The position numbers and the translations under genes are program-made. From an uncultured Gammaproteobacteria bacterium (lineage in GTDB: Bacteria > Patescibacteriota > Microgenomatia > UBA8517): a stretch of DNA of 64,000 nucleotides. The stretch is from assembly GCA_964489145.1 (NCBI GenBank), contig CAZAXL010000004.1:8176-72175 (forward strand), in the 5' to 3' direction. Of the stretch, positions 41,296 through 63,705 are shown in pieces; the first letter of the stretch is position 1, and every line of letters starts with the position of its first letter. Below the pieces are notes generated by a model. The model saw nothing but the letters and a program-made list of their open reading frames with translations. It was not told where the DNA came from and did not search any database.

Positions 41296-41859
41296 CTACT
41301 GGCCCTCGACGGGATTTTCCGAAAAGGCTTGTCCAAAACTTGTTTTAAATTCATTAAAAGTTGTTGGTTTAAAATACCAAACCTCCAATACAATTCCCGA
41401 TCCCTGGTGTCCAATGTATGCAATTCCTTTATCAGGGTAAATATAAAGATTAAATCCGCTATATGAACTTGATTTATACAAAACATTTTTGTAATTGCCG
41501 TATTTTTCGTTTATGTCTGAAATTGTAATATCATCTTTTGATGAAACAATTTGTTTAACCAGAGTTAGTATTTCGGAATCTATAGAAAATTGATTATTAA
41601 AGTTTGGATTGTTTGATTCATATTCAAGTGTTGTGAGCGTATCGCTTCGGTTTTCTTTCACTGCGGTTCCCATTTGACCAACAACATCGTCTTTGGTGCT
41701 AATACCGGGCGTAAGACTGTTATATGAGGCTCCGGTTTCGGGAATCTTAGTTTTTTGGTTGGTGTCACCTCTACCGGAAAGGGAAATGTAGACAAGATAA
41801 GCTATCGATAACAGCGAAATTGCGGCGATTGCTAAAATTATTTTCTTGTTTTTAAACAT
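41296..41859 (-). CDS. Membrane-anchored extracytoplasmic hypothetical protein (last gene of T4SS-like operon)
   Basis: N-terminal TM (IILAIAAISLLSIAYLVYISL), 187 aa; 14-nt gap to upstream gene. Confidence 0.3.
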   Translation of the reverse strand: MFKNKKIILAIAAISLLSIAYLVYISLSGRGDTNQKTKIPETGASYNSLTPGISTKDDVVGQMGTAVKENRSDTLTTLEYESNNPNFNNQFSIDSEILTLVKQIVSSKDDITISDINEKYGNYKNVLYKSSSYSGFNLYIYPDKGIAYIGHQGSGIVLEVWYFKPTTFNEFKTSFGQAFSENPVEGQ

Positions 41860-41873
41860 ATTTATATTTTACC

Positions 41874-44723
41874 CTAATTGAAAATATATCTCATTAAAAA
41901 TTGGTAGTGAATTGGCCATTTTTGTTGGACGTTTCCACACCTAGGTTGGACAACATAGAGAGCTATTGCTTCCGGTAGAGATTCGCCATCGTTCCAATTT
42001 TGGGTAGCACTATAAAAACAATACGGCGACTCACTTGTTATTCCCGGATACTCTAAATACAACTGATAGAGTTTTGCGGTTTTATTTCCCCACGATAATG
42101 AATGTCCTAGTTCGTGAGAAAGGGTGTAAAGGGCATCTGCCTGATTTTTAACACCAAGTTTGTAAAAATCTACATAGCTTCCATGATTCCAGCCCCAAAA
42201 GCTTTCAAATGAGAAGGGATTGTACCTAAGAGGTAATGATGGATAAGACATACAAACTTTTGAGATGTAACTGCTATATTTTGAAACCATGACACCCCTT
42301 GCATTAACAATGTTGGCATAATATTCTGATGGCCAAGCGTTGGAATCGATATTTAAACATGCCGCCGGGGGAGTGCCTATTGATATAGAGGCCGCACCGG
42401 ACACTTCTTGTTGGGCAGCTTCTTCTGAATCTGCTATGACAGTAAAAGTATCTAAAATAACGGAATCTTTATAATCATTTCCGGAATAATTTTCGGTATA
42501 AGTAAAAACATAAGGGGCACTGGGAGATATTGAATCAGGAATGTCGGTGGACACTTCAGATGGGCAGGTTTTTGTCGGACCCGTCGAAAATATTTGGCAG
42601 TCATTTTTGAAGGCAATATTGGTTAAGGGGCTTTTCTTTGCGGTAACAGTAATGGTATAGCTAATTTGTAGTGGTAATTCAGTGTTTTTAAATGGTCCCT
42701 GAGGGGTTGCTACTTTGTCAACTTGAATGTGGGGGTTCGAACTTAAAGTTGTTATTTGTGTAGGAGGAACAACATAAGCGCCAGAGTTAATGATAAAAAG
42801 AATAAGAGCAACTACTACAGGGAAAACTAAAAGAGTTATCAAAACAGGTGTTCCAATTGAGACAAGAACCGCCCCTCCAAGGGTTGTAAAAAAACTGCCG
42901 ATACTTGTTCCGACAGTTCCCAGATTGATTGTTCCACCTGCGGCCGCCGATGCTAGGCCGAAAGAACCTATTCCGACCACAACTCCCACGAGAGGTCCCG
43001 CAATTGCGAAAGATCCAATTCCCAGAACAGCTCCTATTATGTAGGGGGCGTTTTTCTTGATTTTGTCCCAGGGGATTTTACTTGCAATCCAGCCAACTGC
43101 TGCACCAATTGCAGCTGTTACTACTGCGAGCGGACCACCAGCCAGTCCTAATGCCGCACCCGTTCCGGCACCGGTGGCTGCACCGCCGGCTGCTCCCACT
43201 GCGGTTCCAGTTGCCCCACCCGCTGCAACTCCGACACCTGTTCCAACGGCTTCACCAGCAATCACACCTCCAACCCCGGCAGTCACGACTCCGGTTTCTA
43301 AAACGGCGGTTCCCGCAATGGCACTGACCCCCTCGGTGGCGACAATTGCTGTACTAGCAACCTCAGTCGCAGCCGGTGTTATAATCGTAAAACCAAAATC
43401 AATTCCCAATGAGCTTCCCAGTCCTTCAAAAAAAGTTGAGGCTCCTGGTATTTGCTGGATAATAGGAATAAACACACCGTCCCCAAAGGGGGTGTACTTG
43501 GTTAGTCCAACAACAGAAAGAGCTTGTTGTCCAAGCTCACTGTTATATATTCCCGTAATTAAACTGTCGGAGGGCAATTTCATAATTTGAGAGTCGAGAA
43601 AATTACGGGCTTGTCCAAGCAGGAAACCTTGGGCTTGGTCTTTGCTAAATGAGGTCACACTGTCCAGTAAATTTGATTGAGATTGAAGAAGGTTTGAATA
43701 GCCGTCACTTAGTTGATGAAGATCAATCTCGTGTGTATATCCCTCTATCGGCTGGGTAGTGAGTGTAACTTTAATTTCATTTGGATCGGGTCCAAAAACC
43801 ACAGCAGCAAGATCTCCATTTACAGACGTAAGAATGTTTCTGCTTAGTTGAGTGGAATTATTAAAGAAGGCTAATTCTTGCGTAGCTGTTTTTAAAAAAT
43901 TCTGTACGTTTGCGTCGGAACTAATACTTTTGACGATATTGGTTTCTTTAGAGACAGACTTCAAAATAGCTGTTTGGAAATTTGTTTCTATTTGCTGTGA
44001 GGGGTTGTTAATTGCAAGCACTGTGTCATTTGCCGTTTTGTCAGATAAAACCGTAATTTCTTCTTCTGACAAATTTTTGGCAAATTCGCTCGAGTGAATT
44101 TTTGCCTTTACAATGTTGGAAATTTCTTTTCTGAAAGATTGAGGATATTTTTTGGCTTCCTCAATAAACTGTTTGGTGTTTTCATCCGGTGTTTGAGTTT
44201 GAGGCGCCTCAACTTTTACATAAATTTTTTTATTTTCCAAAAAACTTTGTATTTCTTTTTGTTTTTGTGTTTTTTCTTCAAAAGACTTCTTTATTCTTTC
44301 GATTTCTTGTTGTCTTTTATATGTTTCTTGTTTTTTTCTTAAAGCCTCCTCAACATTTTTTTGAGCACTTTTTTGGGTTTCTTTTAGTTCAGCTTCTCTT
44401 TTTTGCCGTTCGAGTTCCAGAAGTTCCCTCGCTTCTTTATCCGGCAGATTTGAATCAACCGGCTTTTCCTCTTGTTTATTTGAAGTGAGTGCTTCAACGG
44501 CAAGCTGTGCCCTTTTTATATTTTCCAGATCCCTTTCGGATTTAATTAAGACCCCTGTAAGACGACTTATGAAATCTATGAAATCTGCACGGTTTTTCCA
44601 GTTAAACTCACCCGAAACATAAGATTTGTCTGCCGCATAAATTGTGTCTTCGGGGAAAAAATGGGCAAATGCGTCTATTAAATATTTTGTGTTTTCGGAA
44701 GTCAAACTAATTTTATTTGCCAT
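41874..44723 (-). CDS. Large membrane protein of T4SS-like locus: N-terminal coiled-coil domain, Gly/Ala-rich multi-TM segment, C-terminal HExxH zinc-metallopeptidase-like domain
   Basis: Coiled-coil/charged region aa 80-190; ~180-aa G/A/V-rich hydrophobic block; TLSHELGHSL (HExxH) near C-terminus; immediately follows VirB4. Confidence 0.45.
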   Translation of the reverse strand: MANKISLTSENTKYLIDAFAHFFPEDTIYAADKSYVSGEFNWKNRADFIDFISRLTGVLIKSERDLENIKRAQLAVEALTSNKQEEKPVDSNLPDKEARELLELERQKREAELKETQKSAQKNVEEALRKKQETYKRQQEIERIKKSFEEKTQKQKEIQSFLENKKIYVKVEAPQTQTPDENTKQFIEEAKKYPQSFRKEISNIVKAKIHSSEFAKNLSEEEITVLSDKTANDTVLAINNPSQQIETNFQTAILKSVSKETNIVKSISSDANVQNFLKTATQELAFFNNSTQLSRNILTSVNGDLAAVVFGPDPNEIKVTLTTQPIEGYTHEIDLHQLSDGYSNLLQSQSNLLDSVTSFSKDQAQGFLLGQARNFLDSQIMKLPSDSLITGIYNSELGQQALSVVGLTKYTPFGDGVFIPIIQQIPGASTFFEGLGSSLGIDFGFTIITPAATEVASTAIVATEGVSAIAGTAVLETGVVTAGVGGVIAGEAVGTGVGVAAGGATGTAVGAAGGAATGAGTGAALGLAGGPLAVVTAAIGAAVGWIASKIPWDKIKKNAPYIIGAVLGIGSFAIAGPLVGVVVGIGSFGLASAAAGGTINLGTVGTSIGSFFTTLGGAVLVSIGTPVLITLLVFPVVVALILFIINSGAYVVPPTQITTLSSNPHIQVDKVATPQGPFKNTELPLQISYTITVTAKKSPLTNIAFKNDCQIFSTGPTKTCPSEVSTDIPDSISPSAPYVFTYTENYSGNDYKDSVILDTFTVIADSEEAAQQEVSGAASISIGTPPAACLNIDSNAWPSEYYANIVNARGVMVSKYSSYISKVCMSYPSLPLRYNPFSFESFWGWNHGSYVDFYKLGVKNQADALYTLSHELGHSLSWGNKTAKLYQLYLEYPGITSESPYCFYSATQNWNDGESLPEAIALYVVQPRCGNVQQKWPIHYQFLMRYIFN

Positions 44724-44725
44724 AG

Positions 44726-46546
44726 TTATTTACCGGAGTAGGGATTTGTTGCCACCCTAATTACTTCCTGCGGCTTGGTTGTTATAAGCTTGTTCTCATT
44801 CTCCGAGGCAACAATTCTGATTGGTGCGTGGTGAGGTCCGGCAAAGAAAATTCCTTCTCCGACGTTGGCAGCCAGAAGAAGTCTCTTTTCTCCCTGGGAA
44901 AGGTAAAAGACCTCGCCGATTTTATCAATTGCCGCCGGTGATTGCTTCAGGAGGACCTGCATAGCGCTGTTTGTGACAATAGCCTTTCCTATGTCCTGTC
45001 CGAGGAAGTCTTCGACGTCCTGGGTTATCGTAGTGAGTCCCAGATAGTATTTGCGGGCCCTCTTGACAACACTCCAAAGAAATTGCGCCGTATCTGGATA
45101 TCTCATCATGTGCCAAGCCTCGTCAACTATCAGAATTCTTTTCTTTAAATCTTTCTTAACCCTTGTCCAAATATAATCGAGAATTATGAACATGGCGATG
45201 GGGCGGAGTGCATCCTGCAGATCTTTAACGGAGAAAACAGTAAATGGGTTAGTGATATTAATATTCGTTTGCTGATCAAAAATTCCCACAAAACTTCCTT
45301 TGACAAATTTCTCGATTCTGGCGGCCAGATCCAGTGCGTCGGGGACCTCCATTCCAATAAGAGTTTTGTAAAGATCCTCCATTAAAGGCGGTTCTTTTCC
45401 TTGAGTATCAGGATCCATAGTTATTCCCTTGGCTTTATAGGTGATAATCAGGGCTCTATCCAAAAGTGCTTCCTGAGTTGGAGTAATTGCTCCCATGATT
45501 ACTTTCATCAGAGAATGAAGTGAGAGAATTTTAAGTCCAAGCTGGTTTTCTCCCTCCTCCCTGATTTGTGATAAGTCGAAGGGGTTTATTTTTGCGGTTG
45601 AGTTGTAGGAGAAAGAAATGTATTCGCCCCCCACAGCTTCAGCAATGGTTTTGTACTCGCTTTCCGGATCAATAACAATTGTTTCTATCCCAACCATGAG
45701 TGACCTAATTGCTTCCAGTTTGACAAAATAAGACTTGCCGGCGCCACTGGTTGCGAAGATTGTCATATTGGCGTTTTGCAGGCTAAATCTATCAAAAATG
45801 ATAAAAGACTCGTTTTGGGAATTTATACCAAAGAGCACCCCGCGGTCGCTTGAAAGCTCAGTTGAGGTTAAGGGAAAAGTTGTGGCTACGGAGGTTGTGT
45901 CCATATTTCTCGTAATGTTTAACCTGTCTATTCCAAAGGGAGCCGTTGCCGTAAAACCCTCGGACATATCAAGCATGGCGTGTTTACTGACAATCATTAA
46001 GGATCCAAGTTGGGATTCAACCTGTTTGGTTATTTGGTTAAGTTCCTCGGGGGAGTTGGCGGGAATTGTTATGTAAAATCCAAATTCATAAAAACGCTCG
46101 ATTCCCTTGACAAGTTGTTCCTGAAGAGCTTGTGCGTCTTCGAGTTTAGCCTGTGTAACGGGGTCGACGATTTTACCGCGTTCGATATCGGTCATTATCT
46201 CAGCTTCCATTTCGGCAATTTTACGTCTTAGATCATCGAGCACACTTTTTCCGTCTACAGGATAAATGTAAAAAGAAATATCGAGAGAAGTATCTATATT
46301 CACAACCGGCTCAAGCCATCCGGGTGCAACAAATCTCGGATAACCTCCAACAAAAATAGTCCTGAAGTAGATATCGTTTATTTTTAAATAATCAAAATCT
46401 ACCTCGACAGATTGAGGGGAAATCACATCCAATAAACTCATTTTTTGATTCATGACTGAAAAAGCCGGAGATATGATCTGCGGTTTAGCCTCGGTTTCCT
46501 GGATGGGAACCGTCGGTTGCTGGCCTTGTTTATTGTCTGGTTTCAT
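44726..46546 (-). CDS. VirB4/TraC/TrbE-family T4SS ATPase, ATPase (C-terminal) part
   Basis: Walker A FATSGAGKS, VirB4-type Walker B ILIVDEAWHMM, downstream TTITQD; 606 aa is ~200 aa short of full VirB4. Confidence 0.7.
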   Translation of the reverse strand: MKPDNKQGQQPTVPIQETEAKPQIISPAFSVMNQKMSLLDVISPQSVEVDFDYLKINDIYFRTIFVGGYPRFVAPGWLEPVVNIDTSLDISFYIYPVDGKSVLDDLRRKIAEMEAEIMTDIERGKIVDPVTQAKLEDAQALQEQLVKGIERFYEFGFYITIPANSPEELNQITKQVESQLGSLMIVSKHAMLDMSEGFTATAPFGIDRLNITRNMDTTSVATTFPLTSTELSSDRGVLFGINSQNESFIIFDRFSLQNANMTIFATSGAGKSYFVKLEAIRSLMVGIETIVIDPESEYKTIAEAVGGEYISFSYNSTAKINPFDLSQIREEGENQLGLKILSLHSLMKVIMGAITPTQEALLDRALIITYKAKGITMDPDTQGKEPPLMEDLYKTLIGMEVPDALDLAARIEKFVKGSFVGIFDQQTNINITNPFTVFSVKDLQDALRPIAMFIILDYIWTRVKKDLKKRILIVDEAWHMMRYPDTAQFLWSVVKRARKYYLGLTTITQDVEDFLGQDIGKAIVTNSAMQVLLKQSPAAIDKIGEVFYLSQGEKRLLLAANVGEGIFFAGPHHAPIRIVASENENKLITTKPQEVIRVATNPYSGK

Positions 46547-47226
46547 TTGTTTTCAAGTATTACCTCGGGCTCTTTTTTGACGGCTGGCTTTTCCGGATTG
46601 TAAATTGAATAAAACAAGTTTATAAGATCGGGGGTTGTAAGTTGTTTGAATTTAATTCCAAGTCGTCCTGCCTGACGGACAAGATGGTCGCGTCTTGGGT
46701 AAAGAGCAATTTTTGCTTTTTTAATAACATATGATTTAGTAAATGGAAGGGGTCCGGATAATTTCGTAACCGCGGCTATAGATTTTGCTACCCCAAGCTC
46801 AAGTGGAGACAGATAAAGAACGACAAAAAATCTTTTTCCTAAAACATTTTTCTTTTTAACGGATTCGGTTATAAAGTTTTTATAATCCTGCATGAGATTT
46901 GCAAGAAGGGGCTGAGTAATCTTTTTTGATTGCTCATCCAGAAAGTTTAGATATGATGAAATATCTTTCTTTTGGGTTAAAACAACAATTTGTACGGAGA
47001 AAGTAAGTGAATTTACCATGGCTGCATAAGCAGCAATTACGGCTTCCTGTTCTTTTTCCGAAAGGAGCCCAAAGTTTAGGGAACTTGACTCCATGATAAG
47101 TGCTGCTCCGCCATCTTTATAAATAACGATGTCATTGGTAATGTCGGCAACAGGTACAAAATCTTGAGTGGTTGAAGTTAAAGGTTTGTCGGGAATATTT
47201 ATAAATGGAATTTTAGGTATATTCAT
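46543..47226 (-). CDS. Probable VirB4 N-terminal domain encoded as a separate ORF (split VirB4)
   Basis: 227 aa, soluble; DIVIYKDGGAALIMESSSLNFGLLSEKEQE resembles VirB4/TrbE N-domain; ATGA overlaps with flanking genes on both sides. Confidence 0.4.
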   Translation of the reverse strand: MNIPKIPFINIPDKPLTSTTQDFVPVADITNDIVIYKDGGAALIMESSSLNFGLLSEKEQEAVIAAYAAMVNSLTFSVQIVVLTQKKDISSYLNFLDEQSKKITQPLLANLMQDYKNFITESVKKKNVLGKRFFVVLYLSPLELGVAKSIAAVTKLSGPLPFTKSYVIKKAKIALYPRRDHLVRQAGRLGIKFKQLTTPDLINLFYSIYNPEKPAVKKEPEVILENK

Positions 47227-48290
47227 TGGTTTGTTAGTATGTTTGTCGGTTGTTGCATTGGGGTTGCTTGAGTCGTCACAAGTGACCTTCCTTCTACCAG
47301 AATCGGGGGAATAATTTCTCCTTTGGCCTCAAAATTAACGGGCATGAATTGATATCCGTCCTTTTCACTGATAATGCCATATTGGCCGTTATCAAGAGCA
47401 GTGACCGCCATAAAGTGTCCGAGCTTGTTGCTTCTAAGGGCTCTAATGGGCCTGCCGTATTCGTCTCTAATCTCAATAATTGCTCCTTCAATAATTCTTC
47501 TTGCCTCGTCAACAACCTGACCCACCACTACGTTGGGATATGTAGGCGGGTTTGGGGGAGTGGCGTCAATTGAAAAAATGGCTTCTCTGGTAGAAACTAT
47601 TTCTTCCCCAGCAATTGTAGGATTAACATGCTGAGTCTGGACTTGCACTGTTTGAGAAACGGGTTGAACCCTTTCCTCGACGACAAGGTGGGTGGTCTGC
47701 ATGGGGGTTATTTTGACAGATGTGCTTACGGGAATCTCCAGTTTTTTGGGAGCAGGGGGGGGTGTTGGGACGGTGGGGGTTTGGGCTGTGGCCACAGGAG
47801 TTACAGGACCTTTAATGCCGGCAAATATACCGGCAAGGGCAGCCAGGAAACCCTGTTCCGCACCCTCCAATTTAGCAAGAGGTCCGGCCATTTGTTTAGC
47901 GCTTTCCAAATAGTTTTTGAGAGCAGCGTCTTGGTTTTGATTTCCCTGTTGGGGCGGAATATTGCTGACCGCAGTTTCATCTTGAAAAAACCTGGGAACC
48001 TCTTTTGTTTTTTTCCAGTTGAAAATTGTTGGAGAATAGATTGTTTTAAAAAACGATAAAATCCACTGTTCCAGGGGACGCTCCTCAAGAGGGACAAAAG
48101 CCATGGCGGCGCCCAAAATTACAGAGACAATTGCAAACGGCCATTTGATTATTCCAATTAAAGGAGATGAATAAAAAATTAAACCAACCAAAAACCCCCC
48201 CGCAAGCTGAAAGAATTGCTTGAGAGTCATATCTCCCACCAACCGGAATTGGTAAGAAGATATATTTTGCGGAATTGGATGTTGTTCCAT
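47223..48290 (-). CDS. PrgI/VirB3-like membrane protein with ~250-aa C-terminal extension (first gene of operon)
   Basis: DMTLKQFFQLAGGFLVGLIFY...two TM resembles PrgI-family PLTLRQF..L..G block; directly upstream of VirB4 as in monoderm T4SS. Confidence 0.5.
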   Translation of the reverse strand: MEQHPIPQNISSYQFRLVGDMTLKQFFQLAGGFLVGLIFYSSPLIGIIKWPFAIVSVILGAAMAFVPLEERPLEQWILSFFKTIYSPTIFNWKKTKEVPRFFQDETAVSNIPPQQGNQNQDAALKNYLESAKQMAGPLAKLEGAEQGFLAALAGIFAGIKGPVTPVATAQTPTVPTPPPAPKKLEIPVSTSVKITPMQTTHLVVEERVQPVSQTVQVQTQHVNPTIAGEEIVSTREAIFSIDATPPNPPTYPNVVVGQVVDEARRIIEGAIIEIRDEYGRPIRALRSNKLGHFMAVTALDNGQYGIISEKDGYQFMPVNFEAKGEIIPPILVEGRSLVTTQATPMQQPTNILTNQ

Positions 48291-48431
48291 GCTTTAAGGC
48301 AGGGCGAAGAATATTAAAAGCAATCTTTTTTGTCTTTACCCTATACTTCTAGGCTACAGCGTGAACGACTGCTTTCAAGTGGTATACTTTTTCACAACAA
48401 ATAAGTATTAATCTTTCGCTTCAAGGCAATC

Positions 48432-51152: not shown

Positions 51153-51161
51153 ATTGTATTT

Positions 51162-52889
51162 CTAACGCTCCCCGGGCCCTTTCTGGCCGCCGGTACCTGG
51201 TTGTCCGCCTTGTTTTTGCATACTCTTCAAGATATCATTCAACACTTTCATTGCTCCTCGTCCTCCACCCCTGCTTTCAATTGCTTGCTGCAACCTTCCC
51301 GCTGCATATGTCGTTCCAGCTTCTGCTCCATATTTCTGTACACCGGAGGCAACTCCACTAAACGGTCCCAGAGCCTCACCAATTCCTGTTCCTGCAAATT
51401 CTTTGCCTGCCATAAATGATTCGATAGCCTCAGATATTTTTGGTATCATCATGATTATACCAACACTCATCAACAAAAATGCAATTGCCGTAGCAGAAGC
51501 GGGGTTTCCTAGCATTGGAGGTCCCCAAGCATTGCAAAAATCTAGAGTATTAGCAGGGTCAAAAAATTCAATTCCTGTAAATTTACTTATCAACCCCAAC
51601 TCCAATCTTAGTACGGGTTTAAGTATGCTCATGAGACCGTTGTTGCAAATAGCGCCGTATACAGATGTGGCCATGGAGTATCCCAGTAGGAAAAAAGATA
51701 TATAAATGAATATTCCGGTAAGGGGAAATACTAGTAGTTTTGAAAACAATTTCTTGAGCCAGCTACTAAAACCCGACTGTGGAAAGAGTGTGCCCATGGT
51801 GATCTGGAGTGGGGCAATTATTATAAGGCCATACACTGCCGCTAGGTTTTTAAAAAGCATAAATATGACTCTGACAGTGCTTACAATAAGTATAAGTAGC
51901 AAGATTATTGTGAAGATAATGAGAAGCAGGCTAAAAAGTGTTGAAGAAATATGGAAACCTGAAACCGATGCTAATAAAGCAACGACCGCAGCAACAAAAA
52001 ATAATATTATATATGCGATAAAATAAAAAAATATTGCGATACCACCATCTTGTAGAAGTGGGATAGACCCGTTGATGAAAGCAAAAATAATTTTTCCCTC
52101 TGCCACCTTCAAAAAATTTGTTGGAATAAAGGACGACATCATAGCAGAAAATACACCCATAATGACATATATTAGGTCAATCATGAATCCAGCAATCGCG
52201 AATGAAAATGTTACTAAAATAAGCGAAATAACTATTTTAGGTAAAGCAGATTGAACACTAATTACTAGTTGAGGGGATAACTTAACCCTCAACATGATCA
52301 TAAAAGCGAAAACAATTGTTACTATTACGAACAGGAAGAAGGAGAAATTTCTGGTTAGTCCCCAAAGTGGTCTAATTACTGTTAATACCGTATAACCATA
52401 TCCGGTGGTTTGGGCGTGAACTTCCGTAACCGGGTCCAGTTTTCTTATTATGTTTTTGACATAACTAATGCCAGAAATTGGTCTATCAGCAAAAATCTGG
52501 GAAGCAATAGATGGTTGATGTTGTGTGTTTTCGGTTAAACCAAGGTCGGCTGTAGAATCATTTATAAAATTAGTGAGACCATCAACACAAGCATCTAGTT
52601 GAATATTTGACGCAACGGCCCCCATAAAACAACTGGCAACATCAGTATTGCCTCCGGTTACCAAGTTAATAAACATAGAAGGAAGGCTGTAGATAATCCA
52701 TTGAACCTGAGCTGCGGTATAACGCTCTCCAAAAATTTCATTTTGATTTGAATTGTCGTATACCTTTAGGTACCATTCAGGGAGAGATTGGTTGTACCAA
52801 GTTGTTTGAGCCTTGGCCTGAGAGAATGGGCCGAGGGAAATAAGAAAAGTAGTGCCGATTAGGATGGATATGAGCAGTTTTTTAAACAT
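51162..52889 (-). CDS. Polytopic membrane protein, VirB6/TrbL-like (inferred)
   Basis: Signal peptide, ~150-aa extracytoplasmic N-domain, >=6 TM, Gly/Pro/Gln-rich C-terminal tail (GGQPGTGGQKGPGER) as in TrbL; position between surface protein and VirB3/4. Confidence 0.4.
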   Translation of the reverse strand: MFKKLLISILIGTTFLISLGPFSQAKAQTTWYNQSLPEWYLKVYDNSNQNEIFGERYTAAQVQWIIYSLPSMFINLVTGGNTDVASCFMGAVASNIQLDACVDGLTNFINDSTADLGLTENTQHQPSIASQIFADRPISGISYVKNIIRKLDPVTEVHAQTTGYGYTVLTVIRPLWGLTRNFSFFLFVIVTIVFAFMIMLRVKLSPQLVISVQSALPKIVISLILVTFSFAIAGFMIDLIYVIMGVFSAMMSSFIPTNFLKVAEGKIIFAFINGSIPLLQDGGIAIFFYFIAYIILFFVAAVVALLASVSGFHISSTLFSLLLIIFTIILLLILIVSTVRVIFMLFKNLAAVYGLIIIAPLQITMGTLFPQSGFSSWLKKLFSKLLVFPLTGIFIYISFFLLGYSMATSVYGAICNNGLMSILKPVLRLELGLISKFTGIEFFDPANTLDFCNAWGPPMLGNPASATAIAFLLMSVGIIMMIPKISEAIESFMAGKEFAGTGIGEALGPFSGVASGVQKYGAEAGTTYAAGRLQQAIESRGGGRGAMKVLNDILKSMQKQGGQPGTGGQKGPGER

Positions 52890-52922
52890 GACAGGTGCCT
52901 CTAATTGATTATTAGGATAGCA

Positions 52923-55313
52923 TTAATTTGGGTAATTAGGTAGTGCTATTCCCGGTGCAATGACGGAATAAATAAAGTTCAAATCGTTCGTATAACTTGA
53001 TATTTTATCTTTTTCGTTTTGATTTAGTGGGGAGCAGTGTCCAAACCAAAACATTGAAATAAAGGTACTCATATCCTTTTTACCACACTTGGCAGCGTAT
53101 GAACTTGGTAAATTTAAAAAGAAGTCTAGTTGTTTACTAAAATTATTAGTTGGTACACTTTGATTACCGTGGATGCCAAAATCTTCGACAGGATAGTTTA
53201 CAGCCTCGTAATTACTTGCATCGGATTCATGTATCCAGATGGCAAGAGTAAATATTGGATCTATATTTTTGTTTTTTGACCTCTGAATAACATCATTATT
53301 ACATTCTTTGAAGTAAGGTCTGCCGGGACCCGTCGCATACCAGATCTTGGTTATATTTTCCGCCTCGGTTTTGTTTAAACCATTCACAGCAATTTCCGGA
53401 ATGGTTTGATTGCAATTTATTTCACCGCTACTGCTCGAATCTTCATCAGAATTCGGTGCAAAAGAAATTGCGTCACCAAGCCCTTTGGGTCTGAGAGCGG
53501 TTTGGATACCATTTAAGAAATATTCGGAAATTCCTCCCAGATGGGGGAGTTTTAAATCGGTGTTTGATTGAGAGACATTCGTGCCTGAATAATTAATATT
53601 AGTAGATCCCGGCATATCCATTATCTGCCCGACGCTTCCAGCCGTGTTGGTTTTTGGGAAAATTCTCTTGAAAACCGCCATTGGACCCGCCACAAGGCGC
53701 GACCAAATATCGTCGGCGAGAGGAATTTTTGAGGTAGTTGAGAGGTTGATATAAACATCTTTTTTACACTCCTGGGTAGAAGTGGGCGCGGAGGTCGGGT
53801 TAGCATCAGGATAGAGACAATCTGCTCGGCATTCGTTGGGCGCGCCTCCGAAATAAGTACATCTTTCATAGCAACCGGTGGGGATAGGGGCGTCAAAAGT
53901 ACAAGAAAAATTGGCTGTATAGGAAAGATCCCCCGTCAGCTGTGTGGCAAAAAGATCATCTCCCTTATTTGAACGCACCTCAACGGTATTACAGGAAGTT
54001 TCCGATGCAACATTTGTCGGACTCCCGACTTTATCCTCCCCTTTTGGAGTATAGGTATCTTGCAGGAGAGAACTAAGTTGGTCAGATTCTTCCATGTGGG
54101 AGAAAAAAAGAGTAGCGGGATTTTGATTTGAGAATGCAATATTTTTTACGATTACATTTGAGTCTGACGTGCCTTGCGCGGATGATACTTGGTCGATGGA
54201 AATATTTCCTTCGACATCCTCAGTTGAAGAGAGGGGAATGTAGGAAAAGAGATCCGAATATTCATTCGAAATAAGAATATTATTCAAGCACAAAAGTATT
54301 TTAGGAAAAGGAGTAATAATACAAGAGTTTCCCTGCCATTCCTTATACGCTTTTTGATATGTTAAAGAGTCAAAGGGCTTGCCGCTTGGATCAACTCCCC
54401 AGGAAAGCGGAGGGACTCGATACGGCCAAGCTTTATTCTGGTCTAATGCCTGTGTGATAATATCTCCCGGAATAGATGGAAATGTATTAAGAAAAAGATC
54501 GAGAAGTGAAATGCCGGCGTTTTGTAGGGTATTTACAATCGAAAGATTTCCATCCCAGTTTGTTAATCTCCATTTCTCTTCACCCGGACAATCGGTGGCA
54601 ACTGTTTGACCGACGCCCAGGTTCTCCAAACCCCATTTAAGGAAAGATGGAATTAGGCTGGAGTTGATTTCTTTTTTTGTGCAAACCACAACCTGGTCGT
54701 GTCTTGTGACTTTTGCGTTTTTTATTTGCGTAAACCTATTTGCGTTTTGGATTTCCAACGGAAGAAGCTTGGCTAAGGGGCCAGAAAAATTTACTAATGA
54801 ATCATCGTCACTCTTATCAGGATATTCTTTTTTGTTTGTTACTCCTCCAAGATACCAACTTACGTAATCATTCATTTTGTCGGCGTCTGAAAGCGCGTCT
54901 TCGGTGTTGCCCATAAAAGGCAGGTCCGCACCGCTTAAATCAATCGTTACTTTGTGGCTGGGGACAGACACGTTGTATGTGCAATAAACTTTACTTCCTT
55001 TTGTGGTACAATTTCCGCCTCCTCCTGTGTATGTTTTTTCGATGGTTTCCTTCAAGGTGAGATTGTTTCCGCAAAAAGTTGCCTCACTGGCCGTTTGAGA
55101 AGTGCATTGGGTATTTGCTTGGTATGGACGAAGAGAGTTAAATTCAGTATCGGAAACATTTCCACAGGAGATATTTGTGTTAGCAGGAACTTGGGCATTT
55201 ACAGTTCCAATTTCTAATTTCAAATTTCTAATTTCTAATAAAATTACAATTAATAAAATTACAAGAACTGAAAGTTTAAAATTCGAGATTTTAGATTTGA
55301 GATTGAGAATCAT
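52923..55313 (-). CDS. Large Cys-rich secreted/surface protein (796 aa), possible C-terminal lysozyme-like domain
   Basis: N-terminal TM/signal anchor, many Cys pairs, C-terminal FTLAIWIHESDASNYEAV resembles transglycosylase ES motif (weak). Confidence 0.35.
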   Translation of the reverse strand: MILNLKSKISNFKLSVLVILLIVILLEIRNLKLEIGTVNAQVPANTNISCGNVSDTEFNSLRPYQANTQCTSQTASEATFCGNNLTLKETIEKTYTGGGGNCTTKGSKVYCTYNVSVPSHKVTIDLSGADLPFMGNTEDALSDADKMNDYVSWYLGGVTNKKEYPDKSDDDSLVNFSGPLAKLLPLEIQNANRFTQIKNAKVTRHDQVVVCTKKEINSSLIPSFLKWGLENLGVGQTVATDCPGEEKWRLTNWDGNLSIVNTLQNAGISLLDLFLNTFPSIPGDIITQALDQNKAWPYRVPPLSWGVDPSGKPFDSLTYQKAYKEWQGNSCIITPFPKILLCLNNILISNEYSDLFSYIPLSSTEDVEGNISIDQVSSAQGTSDSNVIVKNIAFSNQNPATLFFSHMEESDQLSSLLQDTYTPKGEDKVGSPTNVASETSCNTVEVRSNKGDDLFATQLTGDLSYTANFSCTFDAPIPTGCYERCTYFGGAPNECRADCLYPDANPTSAPTSTQECKKDVYINLSTTSKIPLADDIWSRLVAGPMAVFKRIFPKTNTAGSVGQIMDMPGSTNINYSGTNVSQSNTDLKLPHLGGISEYFLNGIQTALRPKGLGDAISFAPNSDEDSSSSGEINCNQTIPEIAVNGLNKTEAENITKIWYATGPGRPYFKECNNDVIQRSKNKNIDPIFTLAIWIHESDASNYEAVNYPVEDFGIHGNQSVPTNNFSKQLDFFLNLPSSYAAKCGKKDMSTFISMFWFGHCSPLNQNEKDKISSYTNDLNFIYSVIAPGIALPNYPN

Positions 55314-55350
55314 GTCTAATTATTATATCAGTTAAACCTGAGAAGATTTA

Positions 55351-55632
55351 TTAGGGGAGGACTATATTGAAGTTTGTTACATCAACCCCTGTGATATTTG
55401 TGATCAACAAAAGAATTAGATAGGAAAGAAGAATAATGATAAGTCCAGCAATTGCGGAAGTTAGGGTTTTTTTGGCGCTCTCGACAGCTTTTGGGTCACC
55501 ACCGGAAGTGATAAATTTGAACCCCCCAACTACAAGAAGAACAAAGAGAACAATTCCGGCAAAACCTAAAGCATAGCCTACAACCCTTTGGAACAGAACC
55601 CCGAAATCCTCAATTGTTGCAACATCTTCCAT
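55351..55632 (-). CDS. T4SS pilin-like small two-TM protein, paralog 8 (VirB2/TrbC-like)
   Basis: TM1 - SGGDPKAVESAKKTLTSAIAGLIIIL - TM2 shared family motif. Confidence 0.5.
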   Translation of the reverse strand: MEDVATIEDFGVLFQRVVGYALGFAGIVLFVLLVVGGFKFITSGGDPKAVESAKKTLTSAIAGLIIILLSYLILLLITNITGVDVTNFNIVLP

Positions 55633-55677
55633 AACAACACCATTTTAGAGTAAACAGCGAAGTCGAGCAAGAGAGAC

Positions 55678-56025
55678 TTACTGAGGAATGGTAGGAATGG
55701 TCAGGACGTTTAACACATCAAGCCCAAAAAAGACCTTGATGAGAGCCAGAATTGCCCAGGCAGCAAATACGATAACAAGTCCAACTAAGGCCGCTGTTAT
55801 CTGATTTCTTGCAGCTTCTGTTTGAGCCTTGTCTCCACCAGAGGCGATCCAGCGAATTCCACCTATTACTAAAATGAAGAAGAATATGATTGCAGCTATA
55901 ACAACTGAAAGTCTTATTAGACCGGAAACGATTCCAGAAACCGTAAGATTACCCAACGTAGAAAACTGCCCAACTGGCTGAAGATCTATAGGTGCGTTAT
56001 CGGCGACGGCGAGTAATTTTTGCAT
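55678..56025 (-). CDS. T4SS pilin-like small two-TM protein, paralog 7
   Basis: ASGGDKAQTEAARNQITAALVGLVIVF motif between two hydrophobic helices. Confidence 0.5.
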   Translation of the reverse strand: MQKLLAVADNAPIDLQPVGQFSTLGNLTVSGIVSGLIRLSVVIAAIIFFFILVIGGIRWIASGGDKAQTEAARNQITAALVGLVIVFAAWAILALIKVFFGLDVLNVLTIPTIPQ

Positions 56026-56040
56026 ATCTTATTGTGTATA

Positions 56041-56403
56041 TTATCGAATTATTAGATTACCTATGTCAAGAGTCAATATTGAAACACCAATAAAGCCTTC
56101 TATAAGTTTGACGATAGCAAACACAGAAAACATAATAACGAGTCCGATAATAGCGCTCGTGATTTTTCCTCTTGCGTTCTCAAGAGATTGTTTATCTCCA
56201 CCAGAGGATATCCATTGAATCGCTCCAATAATTAACATAAAGAAAAAAATTACAACCCCAACAACGAAGGCTAAAGTTATAAGGTTGGGGATGAAGGTCT
56301 GAAAAAAACTTAAACCGCTTGCGTTATCACCCAAGCCCCCCAATACTGGATTTTTAATTTCAGAAGCTCCCCCTGTTGCTCCCGCTAGTAAATTATTTGA
56401 CAT
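56041..56403 (-). CDS. T4SS pilin-like small two-TM protein, paralog 6
   Basis: SSGGDKQSLENARGKITSAIIGLVIMF motif. Confidence 0.5.
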   Translation of the reverse strand: MSNNLLAGATGGASEIKNPVLGGLGDNASGLSFFQTFIPNLITLAFVVGVVIFFFMLIIGAIQWISSGGDKQSLENARGKITSAIIGLVIMFSVFAIVKLIEGFIGVSILTLDIGNLIIR

Positions 56404-56411
56404 TTTTATGT

Positions 56412-56801
56412 TTATGGATTGACAGTGTTGCCTGTAATAACACTAAAGAGTGATGGAAAATTTAAAATATCGGGAATACCAAGGAGTTCTCCTACCAGTT
56501 TTATGGCAAATATTGAAACAATAACGATGATAAGCCCAATTATTCCGTTTACAATCCTTTTTCTTGCAGATTCGACTGCGGCCTTATCCCCGCCAGAAGA
56601 CATGTAACTAATTGCACCGGTAATAAATAGGAAAACCGACCATATGATTGCTATAACAGTTATTATTCCTATAAACGAAGAAAGGAAGTTTGTAAAGATA
56701 ATATCTGCATTACCGGCCTCGCTTCCTTGGAGTCCAAGTTTGCCAAACCCTTTAAATCCGCCATCTGGAGCTATTTTAATTTCTGCCAATAAATTTTTCA
56801 T
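56412..56801 (-). CDS. T4SS pilin-like small two-TM protein, paralog 5
   Basis: SSGGDKAAVESARKRIVNGIIGLIIVI motif. Confidence 0.5.
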   Translation of the reverse strand: MKNLLAEIKIAPDGGFKGFGKLGLQGSEAGNADIIFTNFLSSFIGIITVIAIIWSVFLFITGAISYMSSGGDKAAVESARKRIVNGIIGLIIVIVSIFAIKLVGELLGIPDILNFPSLFSVITGNTVNP

Positions 56802-57151
56802 TAAAGTGTTGGAATTACCGGATTAAGAATAAAATCCCATTTGCCAAAAATCAATTGACCAAAGAGTGCTGCGAGAACAAAGGCTCCTGCTGAAAATGCA
56901 AGTCCTAATGCTGTTTGCCAAATCTTTGCCCAAGCTCCTGCAACTTTTTTGGGGTCATCCCCTGCGGACATAAATGCGTATCCGGCCAAAACAAAATTAA
57001 ATAAAGCATATATTGAGGCTCCTATTATCAAAATCCAAATAACCTTTTGTATCAATGCTCCGATAGCCACACCCGGTTCCCCACTATACTTTTCCAAACC
57101 CGATGGGGGAGGAATGACTCCAAAAGGATTTGCTGCTAATAATTTTGTCAT
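56801..57151 (-). CDS. T4SS pilin-like small two-TM protein, paralog 4 (most diverged)
   Basis: SAGDDPKKVAGAWAKIWQTALGLAF variant motif; start overlaps stop of the upstream paralog. Confidence 0.45.
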   Translation of the reverse strand: MTKLLAANPFGVIPPPSGLEKYSGEPGVAIGALIQKVIWILIIGASIYALFNFVLAGYAFMSAGDDPKKVAGAWAKIWQTALGLAFSAGAFVLAALFGQLIFGKWDFILNPVIPTL

Positions 57152-57152
57152 T

Positions 57153-57461
57153 TTAGAAAATAAGATTTTGTACCCCCAAAAGAGAACTAACCAATTTTAC
57201 TATCCAATAGGATGTAAATACAATAACAAAGCCGATTACGGCCGAAGTAATAGTTTTTTTAGCTTGCTCGGCTTTCTGGGGATCGCTTTGTCCTGCGCTT
57301 CCTATCATGCCGATCCCTCCCAGGATAAAAAAGAAAAGGAGAATGAGACCCGCAAGAACAAAAGCAATATTTAAGAAAAGTGAAACCACAGAACCTATCC
57401 CTGTAATGTTTTTGAAAGCACTTAAACCAGATTTTCCTAGAAAGGCATCACCTATATTCAT
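57153..57461 (-). CDS. T4SS pilin-like small two-TM protein, paralog 3
   Basis: SAGQSDPQKAEQAKKTITSAVIGFVIVF motif. Confidence 0.5.
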   Translation of the reverse strand: MNIGDAFLGKSGLSAFKNITGIGSVVSLFLNIAFVLAGLILLFFFILGGIGMIGSAGQSDPQKAEQAKKTITSAVIGFVIVFTSYWIVKLVSSLLGVQNLIF

Positions 57462-57526
57462 ACTACAATTTTATTGTAAAGCCATTTTATTATAATAGAC
57501 CTTCTGAAGCAAGTCAGTGTAGATTG

Positions 57527-57859
57527 TTATTTTCCACCGAAGATTTGACTAAAAAAAGTACCTTCAAGACCAAGAACCTGCCCAAAAATTTGGACGATTG
57601 TGAAGGCAAAAAAGACAATAATAAAACCAATCACGGCATTCGTGATTTTTGTTTGAGCAGATTGCATAGCTTTGGGGTCTCCTCTTGAGGTCATCATTTG
57701 CAGGCCGCCGATCACTAGATAAATCAGAAGTGCGACTCCGGCTGCACCAAATATATATGGAAGTATCATACTAATGACATCCCCAACTTTTGCTTCTCCG
57801 CCAAATTTAAAATTTGGAAATGCGCGTGTTTGTATATCGTCAAAATTTTGTGCAAGCAT
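57527..57859 (-). CDS. T4SS pilin-like small two-TM protein, paralog 2
   Basis: SRGDPKAMQSAQTKITNAVIGFIIVF motif; start moved to MLAQNF (the track's longer ORF overlaps paralog 1). Confidence 0.5.
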   Translation of the reverse strand: MLAQNFDDIQTRAFPNFKFGGEAKVGDVISMILPYIFGAAGVALLIYLVIGGLQMMTSRGDPKAMQSAQTKITNAVIGFIIVFFAFTIVQIFGQVLGLEGTFFSQIFGGK

Positions 57860-57860
57860 G

Positions 57861-58268
57861 TTATTTTCCAAAACCAAATTTATCCAATCCCAGTATATCA
57901 ACTCCGATAAACTTAAGTATGAATATCGAAAAAATCAAAAGAATAAGCCCTGCAATGGCCGAAGTTAAAAGTTCCTGGCCGGCTTTCAATCTTTCGGGGT
58001 TCCCTGAGGCTGTCATGGTCATAAACCCGGCATAAAGCATCAGGAGAAACGCAATTCCTCCCCCGATGCCAACTCCCCAATTGAGGACGAAAGATATGAA
58101 TTCGGACTGATTAAATACCGGAATACATCCGATTGCCGTATTAAGCTCTGTTCCTAAAAAATCACAATATTTAGAGTCCATAGACTGAGCCCTAATGGGT
58201 GTTGGGGCCAAAAATATGTTGACAAACAGAAACATTAGGGGAAATACACTTCCCAAGAATCTTTTCAT
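57861..58268 (-). CDS. T4SS pilin-like protein, paralog 1 with classical signal peptide and Cys pair
   Basis: Signal peptide MKRFLGSVFPLMFLFVNIFLAPTPIRAQS, CDFLGTELNTAIGC, then TM-ASGNPERLKAGQELLTSAIAGLILLIF-TM. Confidence 0.5.
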   Translation of the reverse strand: MKRFLGSVFPLMFLFVNIFLAPTPIRAQSMDSKYCDFLGTELNTAIGCIPVFNQSEFISFVLNWGVGIGGGIAFLLMLYAGFMTMTASGNPERLKAGQELLTSAIAGLILLIFSIFILKFIGVDILGLDKFGFGK

Positions 58269-60126: not shown

Positions 60127-60744
60127 ATGCCTGAGATATTTGTTTCCCCAGATAAAGAGGTTGGTAAAATACCTACAACAGAAACCCAAAAAAGTACCTT
60201 TGGAAGCCATTCACACAACCGCTTTTCAGCTTTCAATCTCTACCCGGATGGTATAAATTTTGAGACGAAAGAAAAAGAAGAAAAGGTAATTTTAATGCTT
60301 AGGCAGCATCCGGTGGTTAACCTTAAGTGGATTCTCATTACACTCCTTCTATTGACCGGTCCGTCGGTTTTAGCAGGAATAGGCGTGACTTCGTTTTTAC
60401 CGATAGGATATCAAGTGATTCTTTCCCTTGTTTGGTATTTGTTTACCACGACCTATGCTATTGAAGGATTTTTGGGATGGTATTTTAATGTGTACTTTGT
60501 TACTACCCGAAGAGTAATAGATGTTGATTTTTTTAATCTGATAGATAAAAGAGTATCGGATGCGGAAATTGAAAAAATACAGGATGTTAGTTATACGACT
60601 AAAGGCGTTTTAGGAACTACTTTAAATTTTGGTGATGTGATGATTCAAACAGCATCGGAAGTTCAGGAATTTGATTTTGGGAGGGTTCCGAAACCGGAAA
60701 AGGTTGCCAAAATACTGAATGATCTTAGAGCAAATGTACACTAA
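60127..60744 (+). CDS. Membrane-flanked bacterial PH-domain (bPH_2/DUF304, YdbS-like) protein
   Basis: Two TM followed by YFVTTRRVIDVDF...LNFGDVMIQTAS pattern. Confidence 0.45.
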   Translation: MPEIFVSPDKEVGKIPTTETQKSTFGSHSHNRFSAFNLYPDGINFETKEKEEKVILMLRQHPVVNLKWILITLLLLTGPSVLAGIGVTSFLPIGYQVILSLVWYLFTTTYAIEGFLGWYFNVYFVTTRRVIDVDFFNLIDKRVSDAEIEKIQDVSYTTKGVLGTTLNFGDVMIQTASEVQEFDFGRVPKPEKVAKILNDLRANVH

Positions 60745-63336: not shown

Positions 63337-63339
63337 GTC

Positions 63340-63699: not shown

Positions 63700-63705
63700 C
63701 AAAGC

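Follow-up and report, generated by a model that had tools for sequence, protein, structure and literature searches.

What kind of machine is encoded by the secretion block that directly adjoins dnaA and dnaN in the 64-kb stretch of DNA analysed here (the window), and what would it move? The open reading frames of the block are located at exactly the positions of the original prediction (ORF comparison; Table 1). A co-oriented minus-strand block had been described, which is correct for the other genes but not for the 906-aa ORF, a plus-strand gene that points away from prgI and towards the 575-aa gene. The cumulative GC-skew minimum falls at 36-38 kb, beside yidC-jag-rnpA-dnaA, and the contigs closest to the window's VirB4 are labelled Microgenomates and Woesebacteria; the adjoining dnaA and dnaN and these labels bear out a location near the origin and a locus of CPR type.

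Table 1. Features of the secretion locus (positions in the window)
Feature	Position	Strand	Length (aa)	Remarks
Membrane-anchored protein	41296..41859	(-)	187	Last gene of block; prgL (VirB8-like) position
Membrane protein	41874..44723	(-)	949	Directly downstream of virB4; prgK position
VirB4-type ATPase, CD1110/MPF_FATA type	44726..46546	(-)	606	NF045971, 4ag5 and motifs
TrsD-like protein	46543..47226	(-)	227	Matches VirB4 N-terminal region
PrgI/VirB3-like membrane protein	47223..48290	(-)	355	Pfam PrgI
Hypervariable cytoplasmic protein	48450..51152	(+)	900	Probable ATG start 48450
Polytopic membrane protein	51162..52889	(-)	575	Only position and topology suggest a VirB6 analogue
Exported or anchored Cys-rich protein	52923..55313	(-)	796	
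Eight VirB2-like pilin paralogs	55351..58268	(-)		T4SS_pilin and hairpin topology
Pilins, first four	55351-55632, 55678-56025, 56041-56403, 56412-56801	(-)		
Pilins, last four	56801-57151, 57153-57461, 57527-57901, 57861-58268	(-)		
Hypervariable segment	48620..52685	unstranded		3' bodies of convergent 906-aa and 575-aa genes (blastn)
Second variable segment	41296..44380	unstranded		187-aa gene and C-terminal two-thirds of 949-aa gene

The identity of the ATPase is well established. The 606-aa protein carries the GAGKS and DEAW motifs and matches the NCBIfam model NF045971 ('VirB4-like conjugal transfer ATPase, CD1110 family') with 369.4 bits (3.6e-110), above the cut-off of 325 bits. It also matches PDB 4ag5, the solved VirB4 C-terminal domain (6.8e-45), TIGR00929 (1.9e-33) and Pfam P-loop_TraG (2e-27), and has 593 relatives in genome contigs. 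The NF045971 match spans model positions 180-735 of 752, the protein being without the N-terminal ~180 model positions. The stop of the trsD-like gene and the start of virB4 overlap by 4 nt, and its 227-aa product, which had been overlooked originally, matches NF045975 VirB4_plasma at positions 102-234 (1.5e-9) and NF041427 TrsD (3.8e-8, under the curated cut-off). The same-position gene of sister loci is recorded as PF26593 TraC-like, and the TrsD-like protein is detected in 74/80 related loci (tblastn). At the level of sequence, these matches demonstrate a CD1110-type VirB4 ATPase encoded as two proteins, a TrsD-like N-domain and an ATPase body. The 355-aa protein, predicted to be PrgI/VirB3-like, indeed passes the Pfam PrgI cut-off (29.7 bits; cut-off 27) and is detected in 71/80 related loci (tblastn); it has TM helices at 30-48 and 50-68, followed by a linker rich in Pro and, at the C-terminus, a beta-sandwich-like domain, and matches CarboxypepD_reg under the cut-off (4.2e-4). 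The proposal that the ATPase is of the FtsK/HerA or phage-packaging P-loop type, among unrelated membrane proteins, draws on its matches to DUF87 (HerA central domain, 1e-8) and AAA_10 (8.6e-10), but is refuted, and retains practically no credence, because these are far weaker than P-loop_TraG, NF045971 and 4ag5, because VirB4 has PrgI, a TrsD-like protein and seven proteins matching T4SS_pilin as neighbours, and because no capsid, portal or terminase matches were found among the locus proteins; the locus is a T4SS, as originally held.

The eight VirB2-like pilin paralogs are also confirmed. Seven of the eight match Pfam T4SS_pilin (PF18895), six above the cut-off and one at 20.9 bits, the last having no match; all eight co-align, each with two hydrophobic helices (hairpin), and most copies share the loop motif 'SGGD(P/K)'. 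Their pairwise identity has a maximum of 42% and a mean of 29%, against an average of 25% in PMC12102498. Tandem, highly divergent VirB2 paralogs likewise lie beside the effector-translocating T4SSs of Bartonella and Anaplasma, where PMC12102498 cites their interpretation as an adaptation to host surfaces that vary. Those systems are diderm MPF_T machines with VirB7-11 and VirD4 and eukaryotic targets, whereas the window encodes a monoderm-type system of a bacterial epibiont.

The remaining membrane proteins can be placed by comparison with the Prg/Pcf system of pCF10 (Enterococcus), the MPF_FATA prototype, which has the same VirB4 family (CD1110) and a PrgI. Its prgH-I-J-K-L genes are collinear with the window's 575-aa protein, PrgI, VirB4, 949-aa and 187-aa genes, PrgH being polytopic, PrgJ the VirB4, PrgK a membrane-anchored cell-wall hydrolase and PrgL a small anchored protein. 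In profile comparison by hhalign, however, the 575-, 949- and 187-aa proteins do not resemble PrgH, PrgK and PrgL (probabilities of 0.15%, 0.3% and 2%, respectively). pCF10 lacks pilins but encodes adhesins, a relaxase and a T4CP (PcfC). In the window there is neither T4CP nor relaxase, while the pilins number eight, VirB4 is split and a further protein has a lysozyme domain. The 575-aa protein, originally called VirB6/TrbL-like, keeps that description in topology (about 8 hydrophobic segments and a ~160-aa external N-domain) and in position: like prgH of pCF10, its gene precedes prgI in the same orientation, here with the 906-aa gene between the two. Every sequence test fails: besides the PrgH comparison, TrbL has no match to the protein or 74 relatives, and is matched by 1/17 of its locus homologs, at 1.5e-3. 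Its own family comprises 3023 representative clusters at E<=1e-3.

Three very large proteins had been thought to lack T4SS counterparts, a view that must be abandoned for two of them, since the 949- and 796-aa proteins possess or exchange modules of cell-wall hydrolases. The 796-aa protein consists of a ~600-aa N-terminal body of no assigned fold and a C-terminal lysozyme-like (VirB1-like) domain. The 949-aa protein has a cytoplasmic N-terminal ~440 aa, then a region rich in Gly and Ala that holds three TM segments (525-645), and a C-terminus with an HExxH...E motif, which is probably extracellular; this end has no direct Pfam or PDB match. Its homologs retain the N-terminal 70-84% and differ in their C-termini, with Peptidase_M23 (P0011 and others) or Amidase_2 (P0030) standing where the window protein has its HExxH end, and 11 of the 12 sequences aligned share H870, E871, H874, E914 and E918. 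Comparison of the members shows that the extracellular end holds different cell-wall hydrolase modules from one member to another, and the 949-aa protein is itself a putative cell-wall hydrolase. The 187-aa protein, left out of the original prediction, has a TM helix at 7-25 and homologs in 8 related loci; other relatives have a 150-176-aa Big_5 protein in its slot. Neither PDB nor Pfam gives it an assignment, 2/9 homologs have a BamE-like match (1.4e-3), and the VirB8 assignment fails sequence tests.

How the cell came by this locus is indicated by its setting. In Woesebacteria and Microgenomates relatives the order is pilins-p796-p575-[slot]-prgI-trsD-virB4-p949-(p187)-dnaN-dnaA, where the slot is the position of the 906-aa gene, and dnaA and dnaN stand beside virB4 in 63/80 related loci, the oriC context being kept across Microgenomatia relatives. 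Among the loci examined, VirB4 identity drops in step with DnaA identity, a pattern that vertical inheritance is expected to give. The homology of VirB4, PrgI and TrsD to Gram-positive conjugation proteins, the pCF10-like gene order and the T4CP-like ATPase beside prgI in some Gottesmanbacteria-type relatives (TrwB_AAD_bind, 33.2 bits; cut-off 20.5) would fit the transfer module of an integrated conjugative element, or its decaying remnant. Such an origin is nevertheless highly improbable given this conserved position and parallel descent, since the locus has the G+C of its surroundings without a compositional break, all its genes are intact, no attachment-type repeats were found for it, and no relaxase, coupling protein (T4CP) or integrase is present among the scanned ORFs of the window. 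The lack of VirD4, relaxase and integrase was thus rightly noted at the outset for these ORFs, and the non-conjugative reading holds within the window. We consider it very probable that the locus is a chromosomal, vertically inherited Patescibacteria-type T4SS of an ultra-small Microgenomatia (Woesebacteria-like) bacterium, with a VirB4 clade nested in monoderm MPF_FATA and a position beside oriC.

The component set, originally regarded as poorly described and perhaps new, has in fact been published. Both Wang et al. 2023 (PMC10633639) and, in 2025, Quinonero-Coronel et al. (PMC12102498) treat the VirB4 clade, TrsD, PrgI/VirB3, the VirB2 arrays, the missing relaxase and the proximity to dnaA/dnaN. 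In the latter paper the clade is nested in MPF_FATA and the arrays comprise 2-11 genes, above all in Microgenomatia; it also reports that VirB6 homologs are scarce in that class and that VirD4-like genes lie distant from virB4 in many Patescibacteria. The window shares with this clade the MPF_FATA-related VirB4, separate TrsD-like protein, PrgI/VirB3, divergent VirB2-like array, lack of relaxase, place beside dnaA/dnaN and peptidase-type and lysozyme-type genes. It differs as a Microgenomatia/Woesebacteria case with the 575-aa family in the VirB6 position, without sequence similarity. Such clusters having been described across the phylum in 2023-2025, only two fast-changing segments may be new. 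No description of either segment, of the opposite-strand 906-aa gene or of the modular 949-aa C-terminus was found in the main-text passages of the literature that the search covered.

The first segment removes the bodies of two genes from recognition while leaving their 5' ends conserved outside it. Against relative L086, blastn gives 92% identity to 48611 and 90.5% from 52698, with nothing detectable between; against L081, similarity ends at 48619 and restarts at 52686, the sole match between being 130 nt (52189-52318). In protein comparison with L086, the 575-aa protein is 36% identical and the 906-aa protein has no match past residue 80, whereas the C-terminus of the neighbouring 796-aa protein is 94% identical. 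A ~4-kb segment in which close relatives have no detectable DNA similarity, while its flanks are 90-92% identical, is possibly a new observation. The second segment is bounded by the dnaN stop codon and includes the domain swapping at the 949-aa C-terminus. Against L081 (blastn), the alignment of dnaN ends at 41292 and that of the locus sets in at 44380, with nothing between; L001, L003 and L084 have a similar gap, with only short 81-235-nt matches around 42.6-42.9 kb.

The 906-aa protein, named after the maximal ORF from TTG 48432 (48432-51152), has no TM segment, Walker A motif or Pfam/NCBIfam match, and its AF2 model (pLDDT 54, mostly helical) has no fold match. Only 7 homologs were found in 5.8 billion proteins, and the five that were looked up all sit in the same slot of the same locus. 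In relatives with VirB4 identities of up to 89%, the proteins in this slot are not alignable. Going by these comparisons, a slot conserved in relatives, whose sequence is unrecognisable between them, may also be new.

What such a machine would carry is less certain, and the role of the T4SS has been termed 'completely unknown' (PMC11665869). The main alternative to protein export is a ComB- or Ced-like import machine, in which host DNA, RNA or other macromolecules would enter through T4SS and pilus and feed a cell unable to make nucleotides; PMC12102498 favours it, PMC11665869 names it as a candidate pathway and PMC12857230 offers it as speculation. The absence of coupling protein and relaxase from the window and the weak matches between VirB4 and CedB (1.1e-13) and CedD (1.3e-7), DNA importers of archaea, are consistent with it. 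However, the Ced scores are far under their cut-offs (50.7 bits against 700) while the conjugative CD1110 family passes its own, Ced or ComB accessory proteins were not detected, and import leaves the hypervariable cytoplasmic protein unexplained; we regard it as possible but doubtful. Protein export is tentatively preferred, at somewhat less than even confidence, with the 906-aa protein as candidate substrate or cytoplasmic specificity factor.

In Southlakia epibionticum, a Saccharibacterium, the T4SS locus (SEML1_0006-0019) is experimentally essential for epibiotic growth and ComEC is dispensable (PMC10633639, PMC12857230). For the machine of the window, we infer that VirB4 and TrsD would dock on PrgI and on the 575-aa VirB6 analogue, that the two hydrolase-bearing proteins would open the peptidoglycan, and that the ATPase would pull pilins from the membrane into a pilus or conduit touching the host bacterium. 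Macromolecules could then pass between epibiont and host without conjugation, because relaxase and coupling protein are absent from the window.

The 606-aa ATPase of the locus adjoining dnaN carries the Walker A motif GAGKS and the Walker B motif DEAW, and it matches the NCBIfam model NF045971 ('VirB4-like conjugal transfer ATPase, CD1110 family') with 369.4 bits, above the cut-off of 325, over model positions 180-735 of 752. In addition, the solved VirB4 C-terminal domain 4ag5 is matched at 6.8e-45, and the closest relatives of the protein all lie on Patescibacteria contigs. At the level of sequence, it is thus the signature ATPase of a T4SS, probably of the Patescibacteria clade within MPF_FATA. 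The original prediction of a T4SS-like locus had named a better fit of this ATPase to FtsK/HerA as the result that would speak against it. The DUF87 (HerA) match reaches only 1e-8, far weaker than the VirB4-family matches, and T4SS proteins adjoin the gene, so that neither an FtsK/HerA nor a phage packaging ATPase module can account for the locus. The N-terminal VirB4 part that is absent from the 606-aa protein appears to be encoded separately by the 227-aa TrsD-like protein, which matches VirB4_plasma positions 102-234 at 1.5e-9 and TrsD NF041427 at 3.8e-8 (33.4 bits, curated cut-off 200), in both cases below the curated cut-off; the gene in the equivalent position of sister loci is recorded as PF26593 TraC-like. 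Only this trsD-like gene lies between virB4 and prgI, whose 355-aa product has two TM helices and scores 29.7 bits against Pfam PrgI (cut-off 27).

Coordinates of the locus genes and of the T4CP-like genes found next to prgI in related loci
Feature	Position	Strand
dnaN	40181-41293	+
p187, 187 aa	41296-41859	-
p949, 949 aa	41874-44723	-
VirB4-type ATPase, 606 aa	44726-46546	-
TrsD-like protein, 227 aa	46543-47226	-
PrgI/VirB3-like protein, 355 aa	47223-48290	-
p906, 906 aa	48432-51152	+
p575, 575 aa	51162-52889	-
p796, 796 aa	52923-55313	-
VirB2-like pilins, eight ORFs of 93-135 aa	55351-58268	-
T4CP-like slot gene, L036 (locus coordinates)	1036-3237	-
T4CP-like slot gene, L040 (locus coordinates)	5544-7739	-
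T4CP-like slot gene, L044 (locus coordinates)	5659-7845	-
T4CP-like slot gene, L045 (locus coordinates)	5555-7729	-
T4CP-like slot gene, L052 (locus coordinates)	5521-7713	-

An ORF map confirmed the gene coordinates first proposed for this locus. The block had also been described as co-oriented, which does not hold for the gene of the 906-aa protein p906, as it is divergent from prgI and convergent with the p575 gene. Only 2 nt separate the end of the locus from the stop codon of dnaN. Its flanks are ordinary chromosomal genes: yidC, jag, rnpA, dnaA and dnaN lie at the dnaN end, and SpoIID, smpB and tmRNA lie beyond the pilin array; tRNA synthetases and GroEL are also found among the surrounding genes of the window. 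The cumulative GC-skew minimum falls at 36-38 kb, and no G+C break was seen across the locus. This is the replication-origin region of a small genome. A promoter and terminator scan returned sites no more numerous than in shuffled sequence.

Several features of the surroundings deserve mention in their own right. Just beyond the pilin array lie divergent plus-strand genes for a SpoIID-domain protein (58330-60075) and a bPH_2 membrane protein (60127-60744), followed, as the third gene, by one for a 630-aa protein that has a single TM segment (60976-62868, plus strand); the three may form part of an extended cell-wall or T4SS neighbourhood. The SpoIID gene and a following gene of about 206 aa hold the same position in the related loci L081 and L084; in L087, the corresponding position is taken by a partial ORF with a match to SpoIID. 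Further on, smpB is directly followed by the tmRNA gene (62902-63702; Rfam 157 bits, tag ANSNRSASANYALAYA), while a second, permuted 'tmRNA*' call by ARAGORN at 63608-64029 overruns the window end and is probably an artefact. On the other side, Sua5/YrdC and TsaE domains (t6A synthesis) share a single ORF at 25469-26524, with TsaD directly after, an apparent fusion of genes in a reduced genome, and a stand-alone RNase H/RVT_3-type protein of 140 aa (34363-34785, minus strand) is encoded among the near-origin housekeeping genes.

In the survey of Quinonero-Coronel et al. 2025 (PMC12102498), 2417 of 3035 Patescibacteria genomes have VirB4, which forms a clade nested in MPF_FATA, and TrsD, PrgI/VirB3, VirB6 and VirB2-like proteins are encoded near virB4. 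The survey further describes arrays of 2-11 pilin genes, above all in Microgenomatia and Saccharimonadia, proximity to dnaA/dnaN in Microgenomatia and Paceibacteria, and a near absence of relaxases. This is the system found in the window. The initial interpretation was therefore right in substance, the feature being real and correctly recognised as a T4SS, but not in its suggestion of novelty, as the architecture had already been published (PMC12102498, PMC10633639). The locus type itself is not new, and the value of the present example rests on a hypervariable segment and on the annotation of its giant proteins.

At least 593 VirB4 relatives were found among species-representative genomes, the closest being labelled Microgenomates or Woesebacteria (89-72% identity). 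In these, the order is conserved as pilin array, p796, p575, an opposite-strand large gene, prgI, trsD, virB4, p949, (p187), dnaN and dnaA, and the same dnaA/dnaN neighbours occur in 63 of 80 related loci. Among the loci examined, VirB4 identity drops in step with DnaA identity, the pattern that vertical inheritance would give.

Seven of the eight small ORFs of the array match T4SS_pilin (PF18895), six above the cut-off and one below it, and the remaining ORF gave no match. All eight paralogs possess two hydrophobic helices and align on a common loop motif, 'SGGD(P/K)' in most copies, with a mean pairwise identity of 29%. A short conserved 'LLA' motif (M.KLLA / MSNNLLA / NNMLA) that could be a processing site is present near the N-terminus of five of the eight. 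These five are devoid of a classical hydrophobic signal peptide, which is found only in the outermost paralog (57861-58268).

A VirB1-type cell-wall hydrolase component is present in the locus. The 796-aa protein p796 has an N-terminal TM or signal segment, 20 cysteines and at least 289 homologs; two of 58 of these homologs reach SLT_3 or SLT. An AlphaFold model built from the 58-sequence alignment has a pLDDT of 79, and no PDB fold match was obtained for its first ~600 residues. The 949-aa protein p949, encoded directly after virB4, consists of an N-terminal region of about 440 residues free of hydrophobic segments, three TM segments within a Gly/Ala-rich stretch and, beyond the last of these, a region with a conserved HExxH...E motif. 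Its homologs retain the first 70-84% of the protein and then carry a different end, Peptidase_M23 or Amidase_2. The HExxH domain of the window protein matched nothing in Pfam or PDB, a PDB sequence search with the C-terminal 310 aa also returned nothing, and hhalign detected no similarity between the p949 profile and PrgK of the pCF10 Prg system, the Enterococcus conjugation system that is the MPF_FATA prototype. We infer that p949 is anchored in the membrane and hydrolyses the cell wall through a catalytic end that can be exchanged, as a functional counterpart of PrgK. Two formerly unannotated giant proteins of the locus, p796 and p949, are thereby given cell-wall-hydrolase roles.

The pCF10 order prgH, prgI, prgJ, prgK, prgL is collinear with p575, PrgI, (TrsD), VirB4, p949 and p187 in the window, which suggests analogous roles for the locus proteins by position only. 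The 575-aa protein p575 belongs to a very large family (3023 representative clusters), and its roughly eight hydrophobic segments, together with its position, suit VirB6/PrgH. Its identification as VirB6 by sequence failed throughout. Pfam TrbL matched neither p575 nor 74 representative-library relatives, and was reached by one of 17 p575 locus homologs, at 1.5e-3; a PDB profile search gave a sole, insignificant match (E 0.41) to an MBP-ClpS fusion, and hhalign against PrgH gave 0.15%. The VirB6/TrbL label proposed for p575 is thus suggested by position and topology, but by none of the sequence tests. The 187-aa protein p187 is a VirB8-like candidate by its position, size and single TM helix; it matched nothing in Pfam or PDB, its profile scored 2% against PrgL in hhalign, and these comparisons do not identify it as a VirB8-like (NTF2-fold) anchored protein. 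The VirB6 and VirB8 positions are therefore occupied by families without sequence similarity to known ones.

Coupling protein, relaxase and integrase had been noted as not visible, and this holds within the 64-kb window. No relaxase (MOB) domain was found in any window ORF scanned, the window gave no TrwB, TraG or T4CP match, its scanned ORFs gave no integrase match, and no attachment-like direct repeats flank the locus, the repeat search detecting only pilin paralogy. When the T4CP-like protein of L040 was used in a tblastn search of the window, only the VirB4 P-loop was found (E 0.16). VirB4 does not qualify as a Ced-type import ATPase either (CedB 50.7 bits, cut-off 700; CedD 30.7, cut-off 600), and there were no other Ced or ComB matches.

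The slot next to prgI is held in the window by the p906 gene, whose probable start is the ATG at 48450, since homologs begin there. The protein is soluble and acidic, with about 29% charged residues, and has neither a Walker A motif nor a family match. Only seven homologs were found among 5.8 billion proteins searched, and the five that were looked up all fill this slot in a locus of this kind. Where relatives have a VirB4 up to 89% identical, their slot genes are alike in size and character (mostly 655-925 aa, soluble, charged), and their products cannot be aligned with p906 by BLASTP or HMM. The p906-family HMM links no other slot protein, save for a weak collinear match to that of L004, and Pfam matched none of 18 slot proteins. 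The protein P0008 is 76% identical to the first 74-80 residues of p906, but its body is related to the protein that fills the slot in another locus. An AlphaFold (AF2) model from an 8-sequence alignment was poor (pLDDT 54), and its Foldseek matches (Exo70, 14-3-3, CRM1) were disregarded, as all had E>0.1.

Gottesmanbacteria-type relatives have in this slot a conserved T4CP-like ATPase of about 730 aa, 63-72% identical between loci, which scores 33.2 bits against TrwB_AAD_bind (cut-off 20.5) and lies near the cut-off for TraG-D_C. The same opposite-strand slot thus holds a non-ATPase hypervariable protein in the lineage of the window, whereas it holds a T4CP-like ATPase in these relatives. That p906 is a degenerate T4CP is unsupported, given its lack of a Walker A motif and of similarity to the L040 protein. 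In the more distant L043 (4915-7905) and L054 (3017-7348), a minus-strand ClpB-type AAA+ chaperone gene adjoins prgI, so the neighbour of the T4SS core varies between Microgenomatia lineages. L081 (8810-9904, 364 aa) and L084 (9314-9916, 200 aa) carry an extra unannotated minus-strand gene between prgI and the slot gene, which the window does not have.

DNA comparisons with close relatives delimit the variation. Identity between contig L086 and the window is 92% up to 48611 and 90.5% from 52698 on, with nothing detectable between; L081 breaks at 48619 and 52686, with one 130-nt match (52189-52318) between. From these breakpoints, the bodies of p906 and p575 constitute a hypervariable segment of about 4 kb, the 5' ends of both genes being conserved. 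A second variable segment, 41296-44380, comprises p187 and the outer two-thirds of p949; there, the only similarity left in L001, L003 and L084 consists of short internal matches (81-235 nt) near 42.6-42.9 kb. Neither the p906 gene nor the two variable segments was found described in the main text of the accounts of Patescibacteria T4SS that were consulted.

It may be postulated, as a reading that we regard as rather unlikely, that the locus holds a specificity cassette exchanged by recombination, with p906-type proteins acting as effectors or as a receptor. Strains that are otherwise nearly identical appear to have had the bodies of p906 and p575 replaced, with the 5' ends of both genes retained. 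The identities of the two proteins do not co-vary tightly across loci, so no claim of strict exchange as a single unit is made. On one hand, p906-type proteins could be effectors, polymorphic and translocated, that share a conserved N-terminal delivery module of ~60-80 residues. On the other hand, they could be a non-ATPase substrate receptor, an option suggested by the T4CP-like ATPase in the same slot of Gottesmanbacteria-type relatives. If the cassette reading is true, p906-type proteins would help to determine which host bacterium can be exploited by the epibiont.

In the mechanism that we propose, PrgI and the polytopic p575 would serve as the anchor for VirB4 with TrsD, the peptidoglycan would be opened by p796 and p949, and the pilins would be built into a pilus or conduit reaching the host, in a transfer that is presumably non-conjugative. 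Reviews of these bacteria (PMC11665869, PMC12857230) describe the role of the T4SS as unknown, and raise the export of effectors or an uptake from the host as speculation. Export of protein, for which p906-type proteins would serve as the cargo or as a specificity factor, is tentatively favoured at somewhat less than an even chance, because the fastest-evolving gene of a host-interface locus encodes a cytoplasmic protein. The main rival, import of host macromolecules, which would accord with the uptake raised in those reviews, seems somewhat less probable than protein export.

Few machines are known to be essential to Patescibacteria living as epibionts, and the T4SS is among them. Wang et al. 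2023 (PMC10633639) showed that epibiotic growth requires the homologous locus SEML1_0006-0019 with its pilin array, and PMC12102498 states that homologs of peptidase and lysozyme encoded downstream of virB4 in the SEML1 strain are essential as well. Rather than a new kind of system, the window offers a Microgenomatia example in good resolution, from which three leads can be tested: the hydrolase roles of p796 and p949, the families without known relatives in the VirB6 and VirB8 positions, and the fast-evolving segment encoding a cytoplasmic protein and a channel protein, in which cargo or determinants of host specificity could have their first concrete candidate.
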